IMG/VR virus record: IMGVR_UViG_3300036853_000205
Coordinates: 1-62,441 of that record
Length of the DNA stretch: 62,441 nt
Direction: 5' to 3' (one strand)
Source: a virus
Lineage: Duplodnaviria; Caudoviricetes
Made by a program: the position numbers and the translations under genes. The notes beneath the pieces are model-generated. The model was given only the letters and a program-made list of their open reading frames with translations. It did not search any database and was not told the origin of the DNA. This document shows, one piece after another, positions 18,146 through 38,262 of this stretch. Positions within the stretch are counted from its first letter, which is position 1. Each line of letters opens with the position of its first letter.

Positions 18146-19938
18146 GCCGCTGCCCTCTTTCTACGTAGGTCGCGGACTTCCGCGCCGCCCAGCAACTCGG
18201 CGACAACGCGTGGGTCCTGAACGAGATCGGCGAGCTGTCCGGCGCGCTCGCGCAGCACGGCACGCACACGGGTGTCGATTGTTTTCGACGCGACGATGTC
18301 AATGACTTCGATGGATTCGTGCCCCTCGGCGCCGATGCGGTGCAAGCGGTCCTCGGCCTGCATCGCTTCCACCAAGCTCCACGGACGTTGGAGAAACACG
18401 GCGGTGCGTGCCGCGGTGAGGGTCAATCCGACTCCGCCGGCGCCCGTGGTGACGCAGACCATGTCGAGGTCTCCGCGCTGGAACGTCTCCCGTACTGCTG
18501 TGCGCTCCTTGGGGGTCTGCCCGCCGACGATGTAGCCGACCTTCAACCCCACTGCGGCTGCCGCGTTCCCTGCCAGCACCATCAACTGGCGCGACGGCGC
18601 GAACGCGACCACAGGTTGACCAGGCCGCTCCTCCAGCACCTCCAGCAGAGCATCGACCTTCCAGCTCGGCGCCTTCAGAGTGACCTTCTGGTGCTCCCGT
18701 TCGATGGGCAGACCGGTCATCGGGTCCGCCACGACCTCGGTGGTGATCTCGATGTCGGCGGCGGCACTGGCGAGCTGGGCAAGCCGGGTCAGTTGGGCGA
18801 GCACCGACATGACCGACAGCTCACCGCCGTCGGGTAGCTGCGCGAGCATGTCTTCTTCCAACCCGTCATACGCTTCGCGGTAGCCGGGTGGAAGGTCCAC
18901 GGTCCGCACGGTGTAGACCTTGGGCGGCAGCTCGGCGAGCACGTCCGCTTTGGCGACTCGGCGGTGACGCCCGAGCAGGGTCGTACGAAATTCGGGCTCG
19001 GCGTGCTGGTTGAGGCCGAGCGCGGTGGTGCTGTAGTCGCCGGGACGGTTGAGGCAGTACCGCTGCACCCAGCGTTCCCGCGACGGCCACGCCCCCGGCT
19101 CCAACGCGACCAGGCTCGGCCACAGGTCGGCCGGGCTGTGCGTGATCGGAGTGCCGGACAGGCCGATGAACGTGGAGGCACCACCCGCCAGCCGCCGCAC
19201 CGCCCGAGACTGCGCGCTGGCCTGGTGCTTGAGCATGTGCACCTCGTCCGCGACGACGACGGCCGCGCGCAGTCCGATCAACGGCGACGTGCGGGGGTTG
19301 GTGTCGGGCGCGTCGCGGCGGGCGGTGCCGTAGCTGGTGACGTACACGTCGGCGGTACCAGCAAGGGCTCGCCGCTGCGCGGGACTGCCCCGCCAGGCGC
19401 GCACTCTCCAATGCGGTGCCCATGCTCGGAATTCGTCAATCCACGGGTCGACCACCGACGATGGGGCGATGACGACGGTGGGGTGGACGCGATGCCCGGC
19501 GTGCGCACGTTCCACCAGCCCGAGAACCGTTTCCATGCTCTTGCCGGTGCCGGGTTCATCGAAGATCAGCATGGACCCGGCTTCCCGGATCATGCATGCT
19601 GCTTCAACCTGGTAGCGGCGCGGCACCTTGCCCGGCGGCGGCGGCACGGCGAGCGCGAGCGTGGCAGGGTTGGCGGTGCGACGGCGGACCTGGTCAGCGA
19701 TCCAGGCGGCGAGGCCAGGGCCCGGCCGCCAGTACCGGCCGAATGCCGCCGACAACTGCACCACCCCGGGCCAGGAGGCGGGCATCTCAAGGGCTCCGGG
19801 TGGGGTGGTCGGTTTGCAGTGTGGTGTCAGGACTTGCAGGAGGCGGCTGGCGTCGGCGACTTCCCAGTCCGGGCCGACCGCCATGAGAACGATGTTGCAG
19901 CGGTTGGTGGTCAGCTCCCCCACGACGATCGCTGGCAC
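18142..19938 (-). CDS. SNF2-type SF2 helicase
   Basis: DEPGTGKS, ADEVH, LSGTP, GGVGLTLT, QAEDRLHRIG. Confidence 0.92.
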   Translation of the reverse strand: MPAIVVGELTTNRCNIVLMAVGPDWEVADASRLLQVLTPHCKPTTPPGALEMPASWPGVVQLSAAFGRYWRPGPGLAAWIADQVRRRTANPATLALAVPPPPGKVPRRYQVEAACMIREAGSMLIFDEPGTGKSMETVLGLVERAHAGHRVHPTVVIAPSSVVDPWIDEFRAWAPHWRVRAWRGSPAQRRALAGTADVYVTSYGTARRDAPDTNPRTSPLIGLRAAVVVADEVHMLKHQASAQSRAVRRLAGGASTFIGLSGTPITHSPADLWPSLVALEPGAWPSRERWVQRYCLNRPGDYSTTALGLNQHAEPEFRTTLLGRHRRVAKADVLAELPPKVYTVRTVDLPPGYREAYDGLEEDMLAQLPDGGELSVMSVLAQLTRLAQLASAAADIEITTEVVADPMTGLPIEREHQKVTLKAPSWKVDALLEVLEERPGQPVVAFAPSRQLMVLAGNAAAAVGLKVGYIVGGQTPKERTAVRETFQRGDLDMVCVTTGAGGVGLTLTAARTAVFLQRPWSLVEAMQAEDRLHRIGAEGHESIEVIDIVASKTIDTRVRAVLRERAGQLADLVQDPRVVAELLGGAEVRDLRRKRAAA

Positions 19939-20016
19939 AGGTCCTCCTCTTTCGTGTCTACCGGCGCGTCGGCCGTGGGTTTGCTGCCGAGCAGAATGGT
20001 TGGATGGGCAGGGCTG

Positions 20017-20122
20017 GCCCCCGTGGTGGAATTGGTAGACACACCCGCCTTAAAAGCGGTCCTCGCTTGGGAGTGCGCAATACACGCCCTGGCATGTGCG
20101 GGTTCGAATCCCGCTGGGGGCA
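20017..20122 (+). tRNA. tRNA-Leu(UAA), bldA-type anticodon, 37-nt variable arm
   Basis: GCCCCCG/TGGGGGC-A acceptor, GTGGAATTGGTAGACAC D-arm, loop CTTAAAA, GCGGG-TTCGAAT-CCCGC T-arm; no encoded CCA. Confidence 0.85.
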
Positions 20123-20125
20123 CGA

Positions 20126-20165
20126 GCGCGGTCCGGGCTCTCCAACCGTCGAGCCCGGACCGCGC
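20126..20165. terminator. 15-bp perfect hairpin after tRNA / after SSB stop
   Basis: GCGCGGTCCGGGCTC-N10-GAGCCCGGACCGCGC. Confidence 0.6.
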
Positions 20166-20172
20166 GTTGCCG

Positions 20173-21021
20173 CTAGCTCTGGCCGGTGAGTTGTGCGAGC
20201 AGCGCCGTCTGCTCGGGGCTCAGCTCGACGGGTGGGGCGGCGACCGGCGTGGGCGGCACGGGCGAGGTCGCGTGGGTGGCGGTGTTGGAGGCGTAGACGG
20301 GCGGCGGTGCCGGTTGGTAGTGACCCATCTGCACGTGCGCCATCGCCCCGTTGAGGTTGGTCGGTGCGGGTGCGGGCGGCTGGTAGGCGGGCGCGTCGCT
20401 CAGCGGCGCCGGGGCTGCTGCGGGAGCCGTGTTTTGCGCGCCCTGGGGGCGGCGGTAGCTGACGTGGAACAGCTTCGTCGGGTTCATTCCGGCGCCGCTG
20501 GGTCGCGTTCCGGTCATGGTGATCGTGATGACGGAACCGGCTTCCGGGGGCCCTTCGGGTGCGCCCGCCTCCGCCATCGCGCGCACCAGCTCGTCCCGCG
20601 CGGCACCCTTCACGTACCACTGCGCCAGGCCGTCCGGATACGCCTGGCTCGGCTGCATCTGCAACGGCACCTTCATCACGAACTTCGGGCGCCCGTCCCG
20701 AAAGAACGACGGTCGGCCCTGGGTGTCGGTCTGCTGAGAGATGTCGCCGTTGCCGAGCGGCCGAGTCACGATGCCGGTGTAGCTGGTGTTGGGTGCCTCG
20801 AAGGCCAGGGACTTTCCGCCGCCGGTGCTGGGCTGGCTGTAGAACTGGTCCAGGGTGCCAGGCACGACCGGGGCGGCGGGGGCGGGTTGCTGATACTGCG
20901 GCGGCGGCGGGTAACCCTGGGGCGGCCCGTACTGCGGCGGGGCGGCCGGGTAGGGCTGCGGCGCGTAAGGCTGCTGAGGCTGCTGCGGGTACTGCGGCTG
21001 CTGCGGGTATTGCGGCTGCAT
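20173..21021 (-). CDS. Probable ssDNA-binding protein with Pro/Gln/Tyr-rich tails
   Basis: Central beta-rich OB-like core; position between exonuclease and helicase. Confidence 0.6.
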   Translation of the reverse strand: MQPQYPQQPQYPQQPQQPYAPQPYPAAPPQYGPPQGYPPPPQYQQPAPAAPVVPGTLDQFYSQPSTGGGKSLAFEAPNTSYTGIVTRPLGNGDISQQTDTQGRPSFFRDGRPKFVMKVPLQMQPSQAYPDGLAQWYVKGAARDELVRAMAEAGAPEGPPEAGSVITITMTGTRPSGAGMNPTKLFHVSYRRPQGAQNTAPAAAPAPLSDAPAYQPPAPAPTNLNGAMAHVQMGHYQPAPPPVYASNTATHATSPVPPTPVAAPPVELSPEQTALLAQLTGQS

Positions 21022-28541: not shown

Positions 28542-29738
28542 ATGGTCGACAGCTTCGGTGCCACACTGCGAGCCTTACGTCAGCAGAACGAACTCAGCTT
28601 GGAAGCCCTCGCCGAGCGCACCACCTTCAGCGCGGGCTACCTCGGCAACATCGAGACGGGCGAACGCGCACCCACCCTGGGCGTAGCCGCAGCCTGTGAC
28701 GACGTGTTCGGCTGCGCCCCCTTGCTGGCAACCCTGCACAGCATCGAGCGAGGAGACCCCATGCTGCGACGGGCGTTACTCGGCGGTACTTTCGCCGCCA
28801 CATCCACTGCGCTGCTCGCCACCGTGGACGGCACCGCGGCATTGGCCGCCGTCCTGCAATCGAGCCTCCACGACGCGATCGAGGCGCCCACCGACTGGGA
28901 TGCCCTGGCCGCCAGCTTCGCCCGCCGTCACGTGCTGGCCCCGTCCCCCGCGTTCGGCGTCGAGCTGGCCGCACAGATCGCCGTTGCGCAACATCGCGTC
29001 ACCGCCGGGGATCGTGATGCTGCCCGGGGCGCCGCGCTGCTCGCGCTCACATACGGGCTGTGGATCGCCGATACCGGGCGGGTGCCCACCGCGCACGGCC
29101 TGTACGCCACCGCTGCTGCCCTCGCTGACCGCTCCGGCGACCCCGCTACCCGCGCCCTGGTCCGGGCCCGCGCCGCGAACCGGGGCATCTACGAGGGCTG
29201 GACCGCTGACCGGGCACAGGCCACCGCCGACGAAGCCCTCGCAATCTCCACCACCGGCACGGCCGCGCTGGAAGCGCACGCTGCCCGGGTACACCTACAC
29301 GCGCTGACCGGCAACCTGTCGGCGGGGCGGGCAGCCGTGGCACAGATGCGGGCGGCGGCTGACTCGCTGCCCGAAGCCGGCGGACCCACGGCGCATCAGC
29401 GCGTCGCCTCGTTCCACGCCTACCTGGAGTGCCGCGCGGGCAGCCTCACAGACGCCCAACGGGCCTTCGAGCAGGCCGAGCGGGATCTTCGGCAGGTGCC
29501 GCTGTGGCTGGCGGACGCCACGATCTACATGGGTCGAGCCCTGGTCGCGGCGGGTGACGTCACCGGCGGGGCACAACTCACCCTGGACGCCGTGCAGCAC
29601 CTCCCGTTCTCAACGCGCATCCTCGGTATCGGGGTACGTGACGTGCTCTACGCTGCCGGGCGTCGGCGCAGCGACGTCCTAGACGTGCTGCGCGGCTACG
29701 CCAGCCCCGGCCCGGCCCCTTGGGAGACCCTGACATGA
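28542..29738 (+). CDS. XRE-family HTH regulator with helical-repeat C-terminus
   Basis: FGATLRALR..LSLEALA..FSAGYLGNIETGERAP; TTA codons at 28575 and 28776. Confidence 0.88.
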   Translation: MVDSFGATLRALRQQNELSLEALAERTTFSAGYLGNIETGERAPTLGVAAACDDVFGCAPLLATLHSIERGDPMLRRALLGGTFAATSTALLATVDGTAALAAVLQSSLHDAIEAPTDWDALAASFARRHVLAPSPAFGVELAAQIAVAQHRVTAGDRDAARGAALLALTYGLWIADTGRVPTAHGLYATAAALADRSGDPATRALVRARAANRGIYEGWTADRAQATADEALAISTTGTAALEAHAARVHLHALTGNLSAGRAAVAQMRAAADSLPEAGGPTAHQRVASFHAYLECRAGSLTDAQRAFEQAERDLRQVPLWLADATIYMGRALVAAGDVTGGAQLTLDAVQHLPFSTRILGIGVRDVLYAAGRRRSDVLDVLRGYASPGPAPWETLT

Positions 29739-30283: not shown

Positions 30284-30385
30284 GTGAACCGGTACAACAA
30301 CTCGCCGTGCGACTGGTGCGGGCACCCGCACGACTACGACCAGCCATGTCGGCTACCGCTGCCAAAGCCTAGGCTCAGCGCATAA
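30284..30385 (+). CDS. 33-aa Cys/His peptide (not in ORF track)
   Basis: AAAGGAG RBS; MNRYNNSPCDWCGHPHDYDQPC..; TAATG coupling to methyltransferase. Confidence 0.6.
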   Translation: MNRYNNSPCDWCGHPHDYDQPCRLPLPKPRLSA

Positions 30386-31182
30386 TGGACGATGCGTACG
30401 AGCGGAAGCTGAACGTAGAAATACCGCAATCAGCGCGCATCTACGACTGGTGGCTCGGCGGCAAGGACAACTTCGCCATCGACCGGCTGGTGGGCGCCCA
30501 GATGGTGGAGGCCATTCCCGAGCTGCCGGAGATGGCACGCGAGAACCGCAACTACATGAACCGCGTGGTGCGCTACCTCTCCGAGCAGGGCATCCGGCAG
30601 TACCTGGACATCGGTACCGGCATCCCGACCAGCCCGAACGCGCACGAGGTCGCCCAGTCCATCAACCCGGAATCCACAGTGGTCTATGTGGACAATGATC
30701 CGCTGGTGCTGGTCCACGCCCGCGCCCTGCTGACCGGCGTGCCGCAGGGCGAGGTGGCCTACATCGACGCGGACTTCACCCAGCCCGCGCAGATCCTGGC
30801 CGACCCGCAGCTACGCGCGGTGCTGGACCTGAACAAGCCGGTCGCGTTGCTGATGATCGCGGTGCTCATGCTGGCCGACGACTCCGCGGACCCGTGGGGC
30901 GCCACCCGGACCCTGATGGACGCCCTGCCTTCGGGTAGCTACCTGGCGGTCACTCACCCCAGCAACGACTTCGACCCCGAACGCATGGGGGCGGCGGTGA
31001 AGGCGGCAACCAGTCACGGCATGACTTTGGTCCCCCGCCCCCGCCACGAAGTTGAACGCTTCTTCGACGGCTGGGAGCTTCTGGAGCCCGGTGTGGTGCC
31101 GGTTATGGACTGGCGCCCCGACGGGCCACACGAGCCGGGCAAGATCGCCTATTACTGGGCGGGACTCGCCCGCAAGCCATAA
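30385..31182 (+). CDS. Actinomycete SAM-dependent methyltransferase (Methyltransf_19/DUF574 family)
   Basis: SARIYDWWLGGKDNF, GIRQYLDIGTGIPT, VVYVDNDPLVLVHARALL. Confidence 0.92.
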   Translation: MDDAYERKLNVEIPQSARIYDWWLGGKDNFAIDRLVGAQMVEAIPELPEMARENRNYMNRVVRYLSEQGIRQYLDIGTGIPTSPNAHEVAQSINPESTVVYVDNDPLVLVHARALLTGVPQGEVAYIDADFTQPAQILADPQLRAVLDLNKPVALLMIAVLMLADDSADPWGATRTLMDALPSGSYLAVTHPSNDFDPERMGAAVKAATSHGMTLVPRPRHEVERFFDGWELLEPGVVPVMDWRPDGPHEPGKIAYYWAGLARKP

Positions 31183-36648: not shown

Positions 36649-36705
36649 TAGGGGTACCCTAATCCGGGGTACCGGTAAGCCCGTACCCCGGATTAGAGAC
36701 CCCTA
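36649..36705. other. Candidate attP
   Basis: CTAATCCGGGGTAC-N10-GTACCCCGGATTAG plus outer TAGGGGT/ACCCCTA, ~70 bp upstream of serine integrase. Confidence 0.65.
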
Positions 36706-36777: not shown

Positions 36778-38262
36778 GTGACTGCCACCGACCTATACGT
36801 CAGGTACTCCGACCTAAAGGCCGAGAATCTAACGCCTGACGGTGAGGCGAAGAACATCGAGAACGCAGTTCAGTTGCTACGCGGGCGGGCCACACTGTAC
36901 GGCTGGCAGGTCGCTGAGGTGATCGTTGAAAACGACGTGTTGGGCGACGGGCGACTCAAGCCCGCGTCGGCGTACAAGCGGCGGGCCGTCATTTTGCCGA
37001 ACGGCGACGTGATTCAGCGTGTGATCCGGCCAGGTTTCACGCGGCTGGTGGACCGACTCAAGGCGGGCGTATCGCAGGCCGTGGTGGCGCTGGACCTTGA
37101 CCGGCTGGTGCGCGATCCGCGCGACCTGGAGGACTTCATTGACGTGTGCCGGGCGACCAACGCTAACGCCCGGTCGCTATCAGGCTCGTTGACCTTCACC
37201 GACGGCGGCACCGACGGGGAGATCACCATGGCGCGGATCATGGTGGCGGTAGCGAGCAAAGAGTCGGCGGACAAGGTGCGGCGACAGAAGGTGGCCCGCA
37301 AGCGCAAGGCGGAGGCGGGCGAATTCGGCGGCGGCCCGCGACCTTACGGGCGAGAGGCAGACGGCAGAACTCTGCGCGAACCCGAGGCCGAGGTGATCCG
37401 TGTGGGGTGCCGCCGGGTGCTTGCGGAGCCGCCCGTCAGCCTGCGCTCACAGGTCCGCTCCCTGAACGAGCAAGGCTTCCGCACCGTGGCTGGTCACCTG
37501 TTCAAGGCCCCGGACTTTCGGGAGATGCTGCTTCGGCCGTGGAACGCCGGTCTGCGCGTTCACGACAAGCAGATCATCGGGGAGGACCCAGCAGCAGCCA
37601 TCGTCAAGCGTGAGGTGTGGGAGGCGGTGGTGGACAAGCTGACTGCCCCCGGCCGCCGCAAGTGCCCCCCGGGTCCGGCACACAAGTACCTGGGCACCGG
37701 GTTGTTTCTGTGCTGGTGCGGCAGCACGGTCACGCCCCGGATCTCCAGCCGGAGGTCAAACCGGTACGGGTGCAAGCTGGGGGCGAACGGGGGCGCCGGG
37801 GGCGGGCACGCGGTGCGGGTCATGGCGGACGTAGACGCCTGGGTGGTCGACAACGTGCTTGCCCGCCTGGCCGAGCCGGACGCCGCCGAGCTGGTCGCGC
37901 CGCGCGCCGGTGCCACGATCGACGTAGCCGCGCTGCGCGCCGAGGTCAGGCAACTACGCGACCGCAAGGTTCGGCTGGTTCGGATGTTCGTCGAGGACGG
38001 GGACGAGGAAGCCCTGATGAAGGGCAAGCGGGATATCGACGCGAAGTTGAACACGAAAACGGAGCTGCTGCACGCGGCCACCGAGGTCTCACCACTGCGT
38101 GACCTAGTCGGCGCCGACGACGTGCGGGCCGTCTGGGAAACGATGACTCTCGGCGAGCGGCGAGCCGTGATCGCGCTCGTTTGCCGGGTCGAAATCTGGC
38201 CGCTGAACCACGGGGAGCGCCGGTTTGACCCGAGCGCGGTTCGGGTTCTCTGGAACGCCTGA
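36778..38262 (+). CDS. int: Large serine integrase
   Basis: LYVRYS catalytic Ser, SAYK..RPGF, LDRLVR, GGPRPYG, LGTGLFLCWCG..YGC Zn ribbon, coiled coil. Confidence 0.95.
   Translation: MTATDLYVRYSDLKAENLTPDGEAKNIENAVQLLRGRATLYGWQVAEVIVENDVLGDGRLKPASAYKRRAVILPNGDVIQRVIRPGFTRLVDRLKAGVSQAVVALDLDRLVRDPRDLEDFIDVCRATNANARSLSGSLTFTDGGTDGEITMARIMVAVASKESADKVRRQKVARKRKAEAGEFGGGPRPYGREADGRTLREPEAEVIRVGCRRVLAEPPVSLRSQVRSLNEQGFRTVAGHLFKAPDFREMLLRPWNAGLRVHDKQIIGEDPAAAIVKREVWEAVVDKLTAPGRRKCPPGPAHKYLGTGLFLCWCGSTVTPRISSRRSNRYGCKLGANGGAGGGHAVRVMADVDAWVVDNVLARLAEPDAAELVAPRAGATIDVAALRAEVRQLRDRKVRLVRMFVEDGDEEALMKGKRDIDAKLNTKTELLHAATEVSPLRDLVGADDVRAVWETMTLGERRAVIALVCRVEIWPLNHGERRFDPSAVRVLWNA

Follow-up and report, generated by a model that had tools for sequence, protein, structure and literature searches.

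The locus and its genomic setting

Between the gene for an SNF2-family DNA helicase and a gene assigned to PHROG 1911, a soil phage carries a 234-bp cassette, which consists of a tRNA-Leu(UAA)-type gene with an oversized variable arm and of a G+C-rich hairpin (Table 1). The window, i.e. the whole stretch of DNA analysed, corresponds to the 62,441-bp IMG/VR record IMGVR_UViG_3300036853_000205; it derives from a soil metagenome and represents a complete temperate phage, with direct terminal repeats and a G+C content of about 67%. The phage is a temperate actinophage of high-GC bacteria. The cultured phages closest to it by helicase sequence are actinobacterial, with 28-35% identity; they are Actinomycetia phage DSL-LC01 and phages of Micrococcus, Arthrobacter, Gordonia and Microbacterium.

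Most of the called genes (52 of 66) are found on the minus strand, including those for structural proteins (portal, large terminase, major head protein and protease) and a replication block coding for a primase/DNA polymerase A fusion, the SNF2 helicase, a PD-(D/E)XK exonuclease and methyltransferases. The plus strand, which is shared by the tRNA gene, contains the genes for a serine integrase (36778-38262), a 398-aa XRE-type HTH protein and a PF04672 methyltransferase. A candidate attP is present just upstream of the integrase gene, at 36652-36703; it is a 24-nt imperfect inverted repeat, whose arms are 83% complementary and 4 nt apart.

The helicase gene also matches PHROG 62, "DNA helicase" (3.5e-91), and the alignment of its product with the orthologue from a related provirus (L001) starts at residue 1; the stop codon of the PHROG 1911 gene occupies positions 20173-20175. 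The tRNA gene lies on the strand opposite to the replication genes, as the earlier note on this DNA had stated, and it overlaps no gene. The same note had called the tRNA "antisense"; since the cassette is intergenic, this term can be kept only with respect to a possible read-through mRNA, to which the tRNA would be complementary, and not with respect to any gene. Pfam and PHROG annotation of the neighbours identified no defence or counter-defence gene adjoining the tRNA.

Table 1. Features of the cassette and its surroundings, with examples of oversized tRNA-Leu-like genes from other contigs
Feature	Position	Strand	Remarks
SNF2-family DNA helicase gene, 598 aa	18142..19938	-	divergent from tRNA; Pfam SNF2-rel_dom 6.2e-28, Helicase_C 9.2e-16
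Spacer, 78 nt	19939..20016		helicase ribosome-binding site on minus strand: GGAGG, complement of 19943-19947
tRNA-Leu(UAA)-type gene, 106 nt	20017..20122	+	Rfam RF00005, model positions 1-71
Anticodon UAA	20051..20053	+	within loop CUUAAAA (20049-20055)
Variable region, 37 nt	20061..20097	+	single long insertion in the Rfam alignment
Interrupted arm hairpin	20065..20093	+	9 pairs as three blocks of 3, 7-nt loop CGCAAUA
Perfect 15-bp G+C-rich hairpin, 10-nt loop	20126..20165		-42.9 kcal/mol
Gene of unassigned function, 282 aa, PHROG 1911 (5.5e-18)	20173..21021	-	convergent with tRNA
Oversized tRNA-Leu-like genes (examples)	L005:5205-5282, L039:245-360, L017:2036-2162		IMG/VR contigs

Structure of the tRNA gene

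The gene is recognised by the Rfam tRNA model RF00005 over the full length of the model, with a score of 52 bits against a gathering score of 29; the E-value is 2.7e-8 when the whole window is searched and 1.7e-10 for a 401-nt stretch. For comparison, a native tRNA-Leu(UAA) obtains 61.8 bits with the Rfam tRNA model. This is the sole Rfam match and the sole tRNA of the 62,441-bp record. The match bears out the earlier description of a 106-nt cloverleaf with a UAA anticodon and A73.

Pairing is complete in three of the four stems: seven pairs are formed in the acceptor stem, where G7-U66 is a wobble pair, three in the D stem and five in the T stem, the T arm being GCGGG-UUCGAAU-CCCGC. The anticodon stem contains four G-C pairs out of five and a C27/U43 mismatch, which is the only unpaired position of the cloverleaf. 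The D-loop is GGAAUUGGUAGAC. By reading, the conserved bases U8, A14, A15, G18, G19, A21, U33, A37 and U48 are all present, together with the GUUC of the T arm (G53, U54, U55, C56), A58 and C61. The discriminator A73 is found at position 20122 and the CCA end is not encoded; this absence and the mismatch at 27-43 had both been pointed out before and can be read directly from the sequence. The cloverleaf combined with the hairpin of the variable arm has a calculated energy of -43.1 kcal/mol, which is within 1.7 kcal/mol of the unconstrained optimum (MFE -44.8).

ARAGORN, one of the checks proposed in the earlier note, gave a divided answer. With default settings it called no tRNA, whereas with the intron option (-i) it returned tRNA-Leu(taa), only by treating 11 nt as an "intron". 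The default result is read here as a limit of that program on arm length. In the "intron" model, placed at position 39, the anticodon stem would have three Watson-Crick pairs and one G-U, with a mismatched closing pair, in contrast to the four G-C pairs of the direct fold; moreover, bacteria are not known to have a tRNA-splicing endonuclease, which counts against this model. Two other solutions were considered and rejected. A tRNA-Leu(caa) proposed by ARAGORN at low threshold takes the arm loop CGCAAUA as anticodon loop, and would have G at 33 and U at 37. On the reverse strand, tried as the functional one, only a sub-threshold Plastid-ycf2 match was obtained (27.4 bits versus a cut-off of 65.7).

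The stretch 19914-20151 (238 nt) recurs with 0 differences in a contig that comes from a different study's soil run. An assembly artefact is therefore unlikely, because the same sequence, odd arm included, occurs in the contig of a second soil study. Among the sequencing runs listed as containing the stretch, none is an RNA run.

The oversized variable arm

Standard tRNA numbering allows for a variable region of up to 24 positions, and the 37 nt of the phage gene exceed this range. The region is also more than twice as long as that of native actinobacterial tRNA-Leu(UAA), which has approximately 16-17 nt; the excess claimed in the earlier note is thus confirmed by native comparators of about 16 nt and by the 17 nt given for Streptomyces coelicolor tRNA-Leu(UAA) in PMC6614811.

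With the cloverleaf imposed as a constraint, the variable region folds best into the stem GCUUGGGAGUG/CACGCCCUGGC, which is interrupted by two 1x1 mismatches, U/U and A/G. The imperfect long stem noticed earlier is hence recovered as a fold, but its stability does not go beyond chance (-12.0 kcal/mol, z -0.83), as 39 of 200 shuffled sequences fold as well. If C46 and G80 were paired across a 2x2 internal loop, a single unpaired base would, by reading, be left on each side of the arm, which would be the usual geometry. The hairpin was also considered as a repeated phage element, but even with 3 mismatches allowed the window contains it a single time. Likewise, no support was obtained for the idea that T arm and acceptor end had been partly duplicated within the variable arm, since the similarity does not exceed chance (an equal score is reached by 526 of 2000 shuffles).

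Downstream hairpin and transcription signals

The 15-bp hairpin that had been described after the tRNA is indeed a perfect stem, with a stability well beyond chance (z -6.98; 0 of 200 shuffles fold as well). It starts 3 nt past the end of the tRNA gene on the plus strand and, on the minus strand, 7 nt past the stop codon of the PHROG 1911 gene. A U-run after the hairpin is absent on both strands and the terminator scan gave 0 sites with a T-run, so that of the two elements of an intrinsic (Rho-independent) terminator only the hairpin is present. Terminators that consist of a hairpin only and lack the U-run have been proposed for actinobacteria, and this hairpin could be one of them.

A scan with the sigma-70 consensus revealed no promoter on either strand of 19500-20700; a promoter for the tRNA, if any, would have to sit in the 78-nt spacer or further upstream. 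Comparison of this spacer with the rest of the genome, aimed at a shared promoter motif, yielded only scattered 11-mers with one mismatch.

The cassette as an insertion at a variable junction

In provirus L001 the orthologues of the helicase gene (62-63% identity) and of the PHROG 1911 gene (56% over 147 aa) overlap by 4 nt, leaving zero intergenic DNA. Because the flanking genes overlap in this relative, the cassette is, from sequence comparison, an insertion. An alignment-based search for relatives returned 65 loci, 27 of which have a helicase with 42-76% identity, and the gene order exonuclease, PHROG 1911, helicase is kept in most of these 27. The locus with 76% identity, L159, ends before reaching the junction. 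The length of the junction is highly variable among the 25 relatives in which both genes are present: 10 of them have at most 20 nt, four have 21-150 nt and 11 have more than 150 nt, the longest junctions reaching about 2 kb (relatives among L147-L176). At least eight of the 11 gaps above 150 nt contain extra candidate ORFs, on either strand. This variation in length and the presence of extra ORFs in the long gaps indicate that the junction between PHROG 1911 and helicase genes is a cargo site; on the same comparative grounds, the 234-bp unit of tRNA and hairpin is one of the cargos it carries.

No Rfam tRNA match was found at the junction in L001 and 20 further loci. When ARAGORN was run with introns on 30 loci, two calls only were obtained: the one in L147 is spurious, since it contains a 933-nt "intron", while that in L175 is a suppressor-type tRNA, in a locus whose helicase is only 32% identical. 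At the level of whole records, nine of 10 relatives have no tRNA match, and in an eleventh, the record of provirus L001, the sole tRNA is a tRNA-His near one end. The tenth is G405, the record that includes L150, with an array of 23 tRNAs according to ARAGORN and 22 according to Rfam, located at about 34.2-37.1 kb and devoid of Leu(UAA). In this array tRNA-Leu(CAA) and tRNA-Leu(UAG) are type I tRNAs with short variable loops (75-76 nt), thus departing from the norm in the opposite direction compared to the gene in the window. The tRNA-Tyr of G405 retains its long arm.

Relation to native tRNA-Leu(UAA) and leucine identity

The phage gene shares several features with the native type II tRNA-Leu(UAA) of high-GC Actinomycetota. 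The anticodon loop CUUAAAA is common to L126, L142 and L146, and in the latter two the 13-nt core CGCCUUAAAAGCG of the anticodon arm and the GGCAUG preceding the T stem are also the same as in the phage; the D-loop is identical to that of the native tRNA-Leu genes L126, L127, L128 and L145. Conversely, the variable region of L142 and L146 is 16 nt long and forms a 4-bp stem with a GCAA loop, as opposed to 37 nt in the phage, whose acceptor stem and T arm moreover bear no resemblance to their counterparts in the native Leu(UAA) genes compared. Pair 27-43 is a C/C mismatch in L142 and L146; the mismatch found at this pair in the phage gene is thus a family trait, not a mark of decay.

In Streptomyces, tRNA-Leu(UAA) is the bldA tRNA, which the earlier note had brought into the discussion. 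From sequence comparison the phage tRNA is probably not orthologous to bldA; only its 5' part matches tRNA-Leu (80-94% over 31-45 nt), whereas the 25 nt at the 3' end match tRNA-Glu.

The elbow of the phage tRNA is of the Leu type, with A14, A15 with U48, G18G19 and A20a, U being the last base of the variable region; the A at 20122 is the discriminator of bacterial type II tRNA-Leu. In Escherichia coli, leucine identity depends on A73, A15-U48, G18G19 and A20a, while sequence and folding of the arm do not matter, according to PMC9976931. According to Fan et al. 2019 (PMC6614811), S. coelicolor LeuRS still charges tRNA-Leu(UAA) after the stepwise loss of all five arm base pairs and, considering the type I and the type II forms of tRNA-Leu together, it accepts variable regions from 5 to 17 nt. 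Bacterial LeuRS recognises its tRNA by the discriminator and the D/T elbow and makes no use of the arm. As these elements are present in the phage gene, the phage tRNA is probably chargeable by LeuRS, by analogy with these systems. The variants tested by Fan et al. 2019 were shortened only, and the phage arm is 37 nt long; tolerance of such an arm is extrapolated, as no lengthened arm appears among the tRNAs tested in the cited papers.

TTA codon usage

TTA accounts for 9 of 17,128 codons of the phage with GC3-based gene calls, and for 7 of 16,958 with a stricter length cut. Its density is 0.41 per 1000 codons, compared to 0.31 per 1000 in the pooled loci of the 27 relatives (14 of 45,780); no enrichment over the relatives' loci, where the junction has no tRNA, is therefore seen, and codon usage carries no signature of a working tRNA. 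The sites fall at codon 899 of the primase/polymerase fusion and at codon 249 of the exonuclease, as well as in a 140-aa protein and a few small ORFs.

TTA is also present at codons 12 and 79 of the gene for the XRE/HTH_31 regulator (398 aa; 28542-29738, plus strand), codon 12 falling within the HTH DNA-binding domain. The PF04672 methyltransferase gene (30385-31182) is found a few hundred bases downstream of it, with a short candidate ORF in between. Streptomyces phages usually do without UUA altogether, as reported in PMC10732093. The presence of TTA codons and of a tRNA-Leu(UAA) in one phage would be notable only if the host were a streptomycete.

Distribution of long-armed tRNA-Leu genes

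Large collections were scanned, excluding the window's own record, with a pattern made of the end of a Leu-type D-loop, the loop CTTAAAA, a T-loop and room for a variable region of at least about 24 nt. IMG/VR gave 0 loci. A set with one genome per species (185,579 species) gave 1 locus, in which a normal tRNA of 85-88 nt is followed by an orphan T-loop fragment. JGI metagenomes gave 5 loci, none of them an intact long-armed tRNA-Leu(UAA): two consist of a normal tRNA plus an orphan T-loop fragment, L124 has a normal tRNA-Leu(UAA) followed by an additional T-loop motif, L123 shows no Rfam match at the pattern site, and L121 contains a 104-nt match of 40 bits, whose first 47 nt are in common with a normal copy about 35 nt downstream and whose acceptor strands, by reading, pair at only four of seven positions. 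Diverged relatives could be missed, because the scans require exact motifs.

In L119, L120 and L122, all from AT-rich genomes, a normal tRNA-Leu(UAA) is followed 15 nt later by the orphan T-loop fragment, an arrangement suggestive of a scar that was left when an element integrated into a tRNA 3' end.

Among cultured phages, blastn with an 801-nt query gave no match, and with the 106-nt gene it gave 212 matches, all of them partial and confined to the 5' half, with coverage of the query always below 80%. Neither the exact 5' 23-mer nor the D-loop combined with the exact 3' end was found in IMG/VR (0 in both cases). Among the papers listed in literature searches, none was found to describe a phage tRNA whose variable arm exceeds 30 nt.

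In Actinomycetota, 263 of 401 genomes (a tally that includes 12 unpublished ones) contain partial BLAST matches. The 5' part matches tRNA-Leu, with 80-87% identity over the 5' 39-45 nt or 90-94% over positions 6-36. The 25 nt at 20098-20122, corresponding to the T arm, the 3' acceptor strand and A73, are exactly those of tRNA-Glu(UUC) in 12 of the 401 genomes, and the 5' acceptor strand differs from that of tRNA-Glu(UUC) by one base, G7 for A7. As judged from these matches, the acceptor/T "minihelix" appears Glu-like, while the D, anticodon and variable arms appear Leu-like; the former could be explained either by chance in G+C-rich stems or by a mosaic origin. Among the matches listed for the 401 genomes none spans both halves of the tRNA, which argues against its having been copied recently from any of the host genes sampled.

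A looser pattern, consisting of a Leu D-loop, 48-75 nt and a T-loop, retrieved more than 117 IMG/VR contigs, mostly AT-rich, which include 98 distinct sequences when that of the window is counted. They are characterized by a tRNA-Leu-type acceptor/D/T scaffold, which in contigs L002-L118 is often AGTCAGGTGGCGGAATTGGTAGACGC ... ACAGGTTCGAATCCTGTCCTGACTAC, and by a hypervariable centre of 48-75 nt. Apart from the window's sequence, 97 remain, and in only six of these does a canonical anticodon arm occupy the position expected for it. These oversized tRNA-Leu-like genes are 97-127 nt in length and score 31-41 bits with Rfam, and their ARAGORN anticodon calls are scattered.

Interpretation

We favour, at about even confidence, the view that the locus is an acquired, independently transcribed and probably chargeable tRNA-Leu(UAA) cassette, a "moron" in the replication module. 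In the mechanism proposed, the cassette would have been acquired horizontally and inserted at the variable junction of the replication module. The tRNA gene would be expressed as a separate transcript, from the strand on which the integrase and regulator genes are also found, and the hairpin may stop or stabilise this transcript. RNase P and a 3' endonuclease would trim the precursor, CCA would then be added and the leucyl-tRNA synthetase of the host would charge the product. The charged tRNA would read UUA, and probably UUG as well; UUA is very rare in the phage and presumably poorly served in the host. The oversized arm would represent tolerated extra RNA, facing away from both synthetase and ribosome. 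Single "moron" tRNAs of temperate phages and actinophage tRNA arrays offer a parallel, since here too a rare-codon tRNA occupies a variable cargo site, ahead of a hairpin; compared to them, the gene in the window differs in being opposite in strand to its neighbours, in being the sole tRNA of its genome and in the unparalleled length of its arm.

The main rival, which we consider unlikely on balance, is that of an inactive relic, i.e. a captured tRNA-Leu gene that received an insertion of about 20 nt in its arm and is no longer properly processed, folded or charged, and that would persist only on account of the youth of the cassette. Several findings are consistent with a relic: the gene is a singleton, none of the relatives examined having it at the junction, its arm is longer than that of any tRNA-Leu(UAA) found in three large collections, the fold of the arm is within chance, no promoter was found by the consensus scan and TTA codons are not in excess. 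Furthermore, the other oversized Leu(UAA) look-alikes that were retrieved are rearranged or decayed copies (L121 and L123). Decay is argued against by the integrity of every core stem and conserved position, the sole irregular pair, 27-43, being mismatched in native genes too. The same sequence was moreover recovered in two soil studies. The extra sequence is placed exactly where bacterial LeuRS is indifferent (PMC6614811; PMC9976931).

It is improbable, in our estimate, that the gene produces a non-decoding, tRNA-like RNA. Such an RNA may act as a decoy or a resistant substitute against a tRNA-targeting defence, for which an anticodon nuclease and an acceptor-end nucleotidyltransferase toxin were considered, or it may be a processing or antisense element on a read-through mRNA. 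The position of the gene suits the latter role, as it lies between, and opposite to, a pair of genes whose translation is coupled in a relative; a read-through mRNA of helicase and PHROG 1911 genes would hence be complementary to the tRNA. The unusual arm would also fit, and so would the many tRNA-Leu-like genes of phage contigs that are oversized and whose centres are not normal anticodon arms, which suggest that phages use the tRNA-Leu scaffold in odd ways. Against this reading, the annotation revealed no gene for defence or counter-defence beside the tRNA, and its anticodon has the usual loop of native tRNA-Leu(UAA), CUUAAAA, instead of a variant one.

Serine recombinases do not usually target the 3' ends of tRNAs, and a recombination scar, in the form of a remnant attachment site or of a tRNA 3' end that was partly duplicated and engulfed by the variable region, is highly improbable: normal tRNA-Leu(UAA) genes with orphan T-loop fragments do exist (L119, L120 and L122) and the last 25 nt are shared with actinobacterial tRNA-Glu(UUC), but the tRNA is complete and not a 3' fragment, its variable region resembles the T arm and acceptor end only at chance level, and the integrase is a serine recombinase encoded 16.6 kb away. 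As the tRNA is complete and the integrase a serine recombinase, an attP that carries a tRNA 3' fragment beside a tyrosine integrase was discarded as an explanation of the gene.

Implications and other long-armed tRNA-like genes of phages

If the cassette yields a charged tRNA that is used in translation, as in the reading favoured above, bacterial translation would accept a variable arm about twice the natural length, and the arm could serve as an insertion site in tRNA engineering. Since default ARAGORN misses the gene in the window, tRNAs of such shape may be under-counted in phage genomes. If the gene is a dead relic, it would be an ordinary footnote.

A more ambitious form of the cassette hypothesis, to which we assign a slender chance, sees in it a device for lysogenic conversion or autonomy, namely a constitutive and distinct tRNA-Leu(UAA) whose arm would escape limits or attack on the UUA reader of the host and which, together with phage genes that have arms of 30-41 nt, would define an unrecognised class of phage tRNAs. 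Such a device would allow the phage to escape a tRNA-targeting defence or a bldA-type developmental control; its polymerase, exonuclease and XRE regulator, whose genes contain TTA, would be translated whatever the stage of the host, and TTA-gated genes of the host might be switched on in the lysogen.

The genes with 30-41-nt variable regions are those of the IMG/VR contigs L033, L064, L075 and L082, which also have a Leu-type D-loop and a canonical anticodon arm. Their variable arms fold into long hairpins, whose sequence is different in each case. They differ from the gene in the window, to which they are unrelated in sequence, since they are found in contigs with 33-38% GC and are characterized by the anticodon loop CUGUUUA, by G73 and by an encoded CCA.
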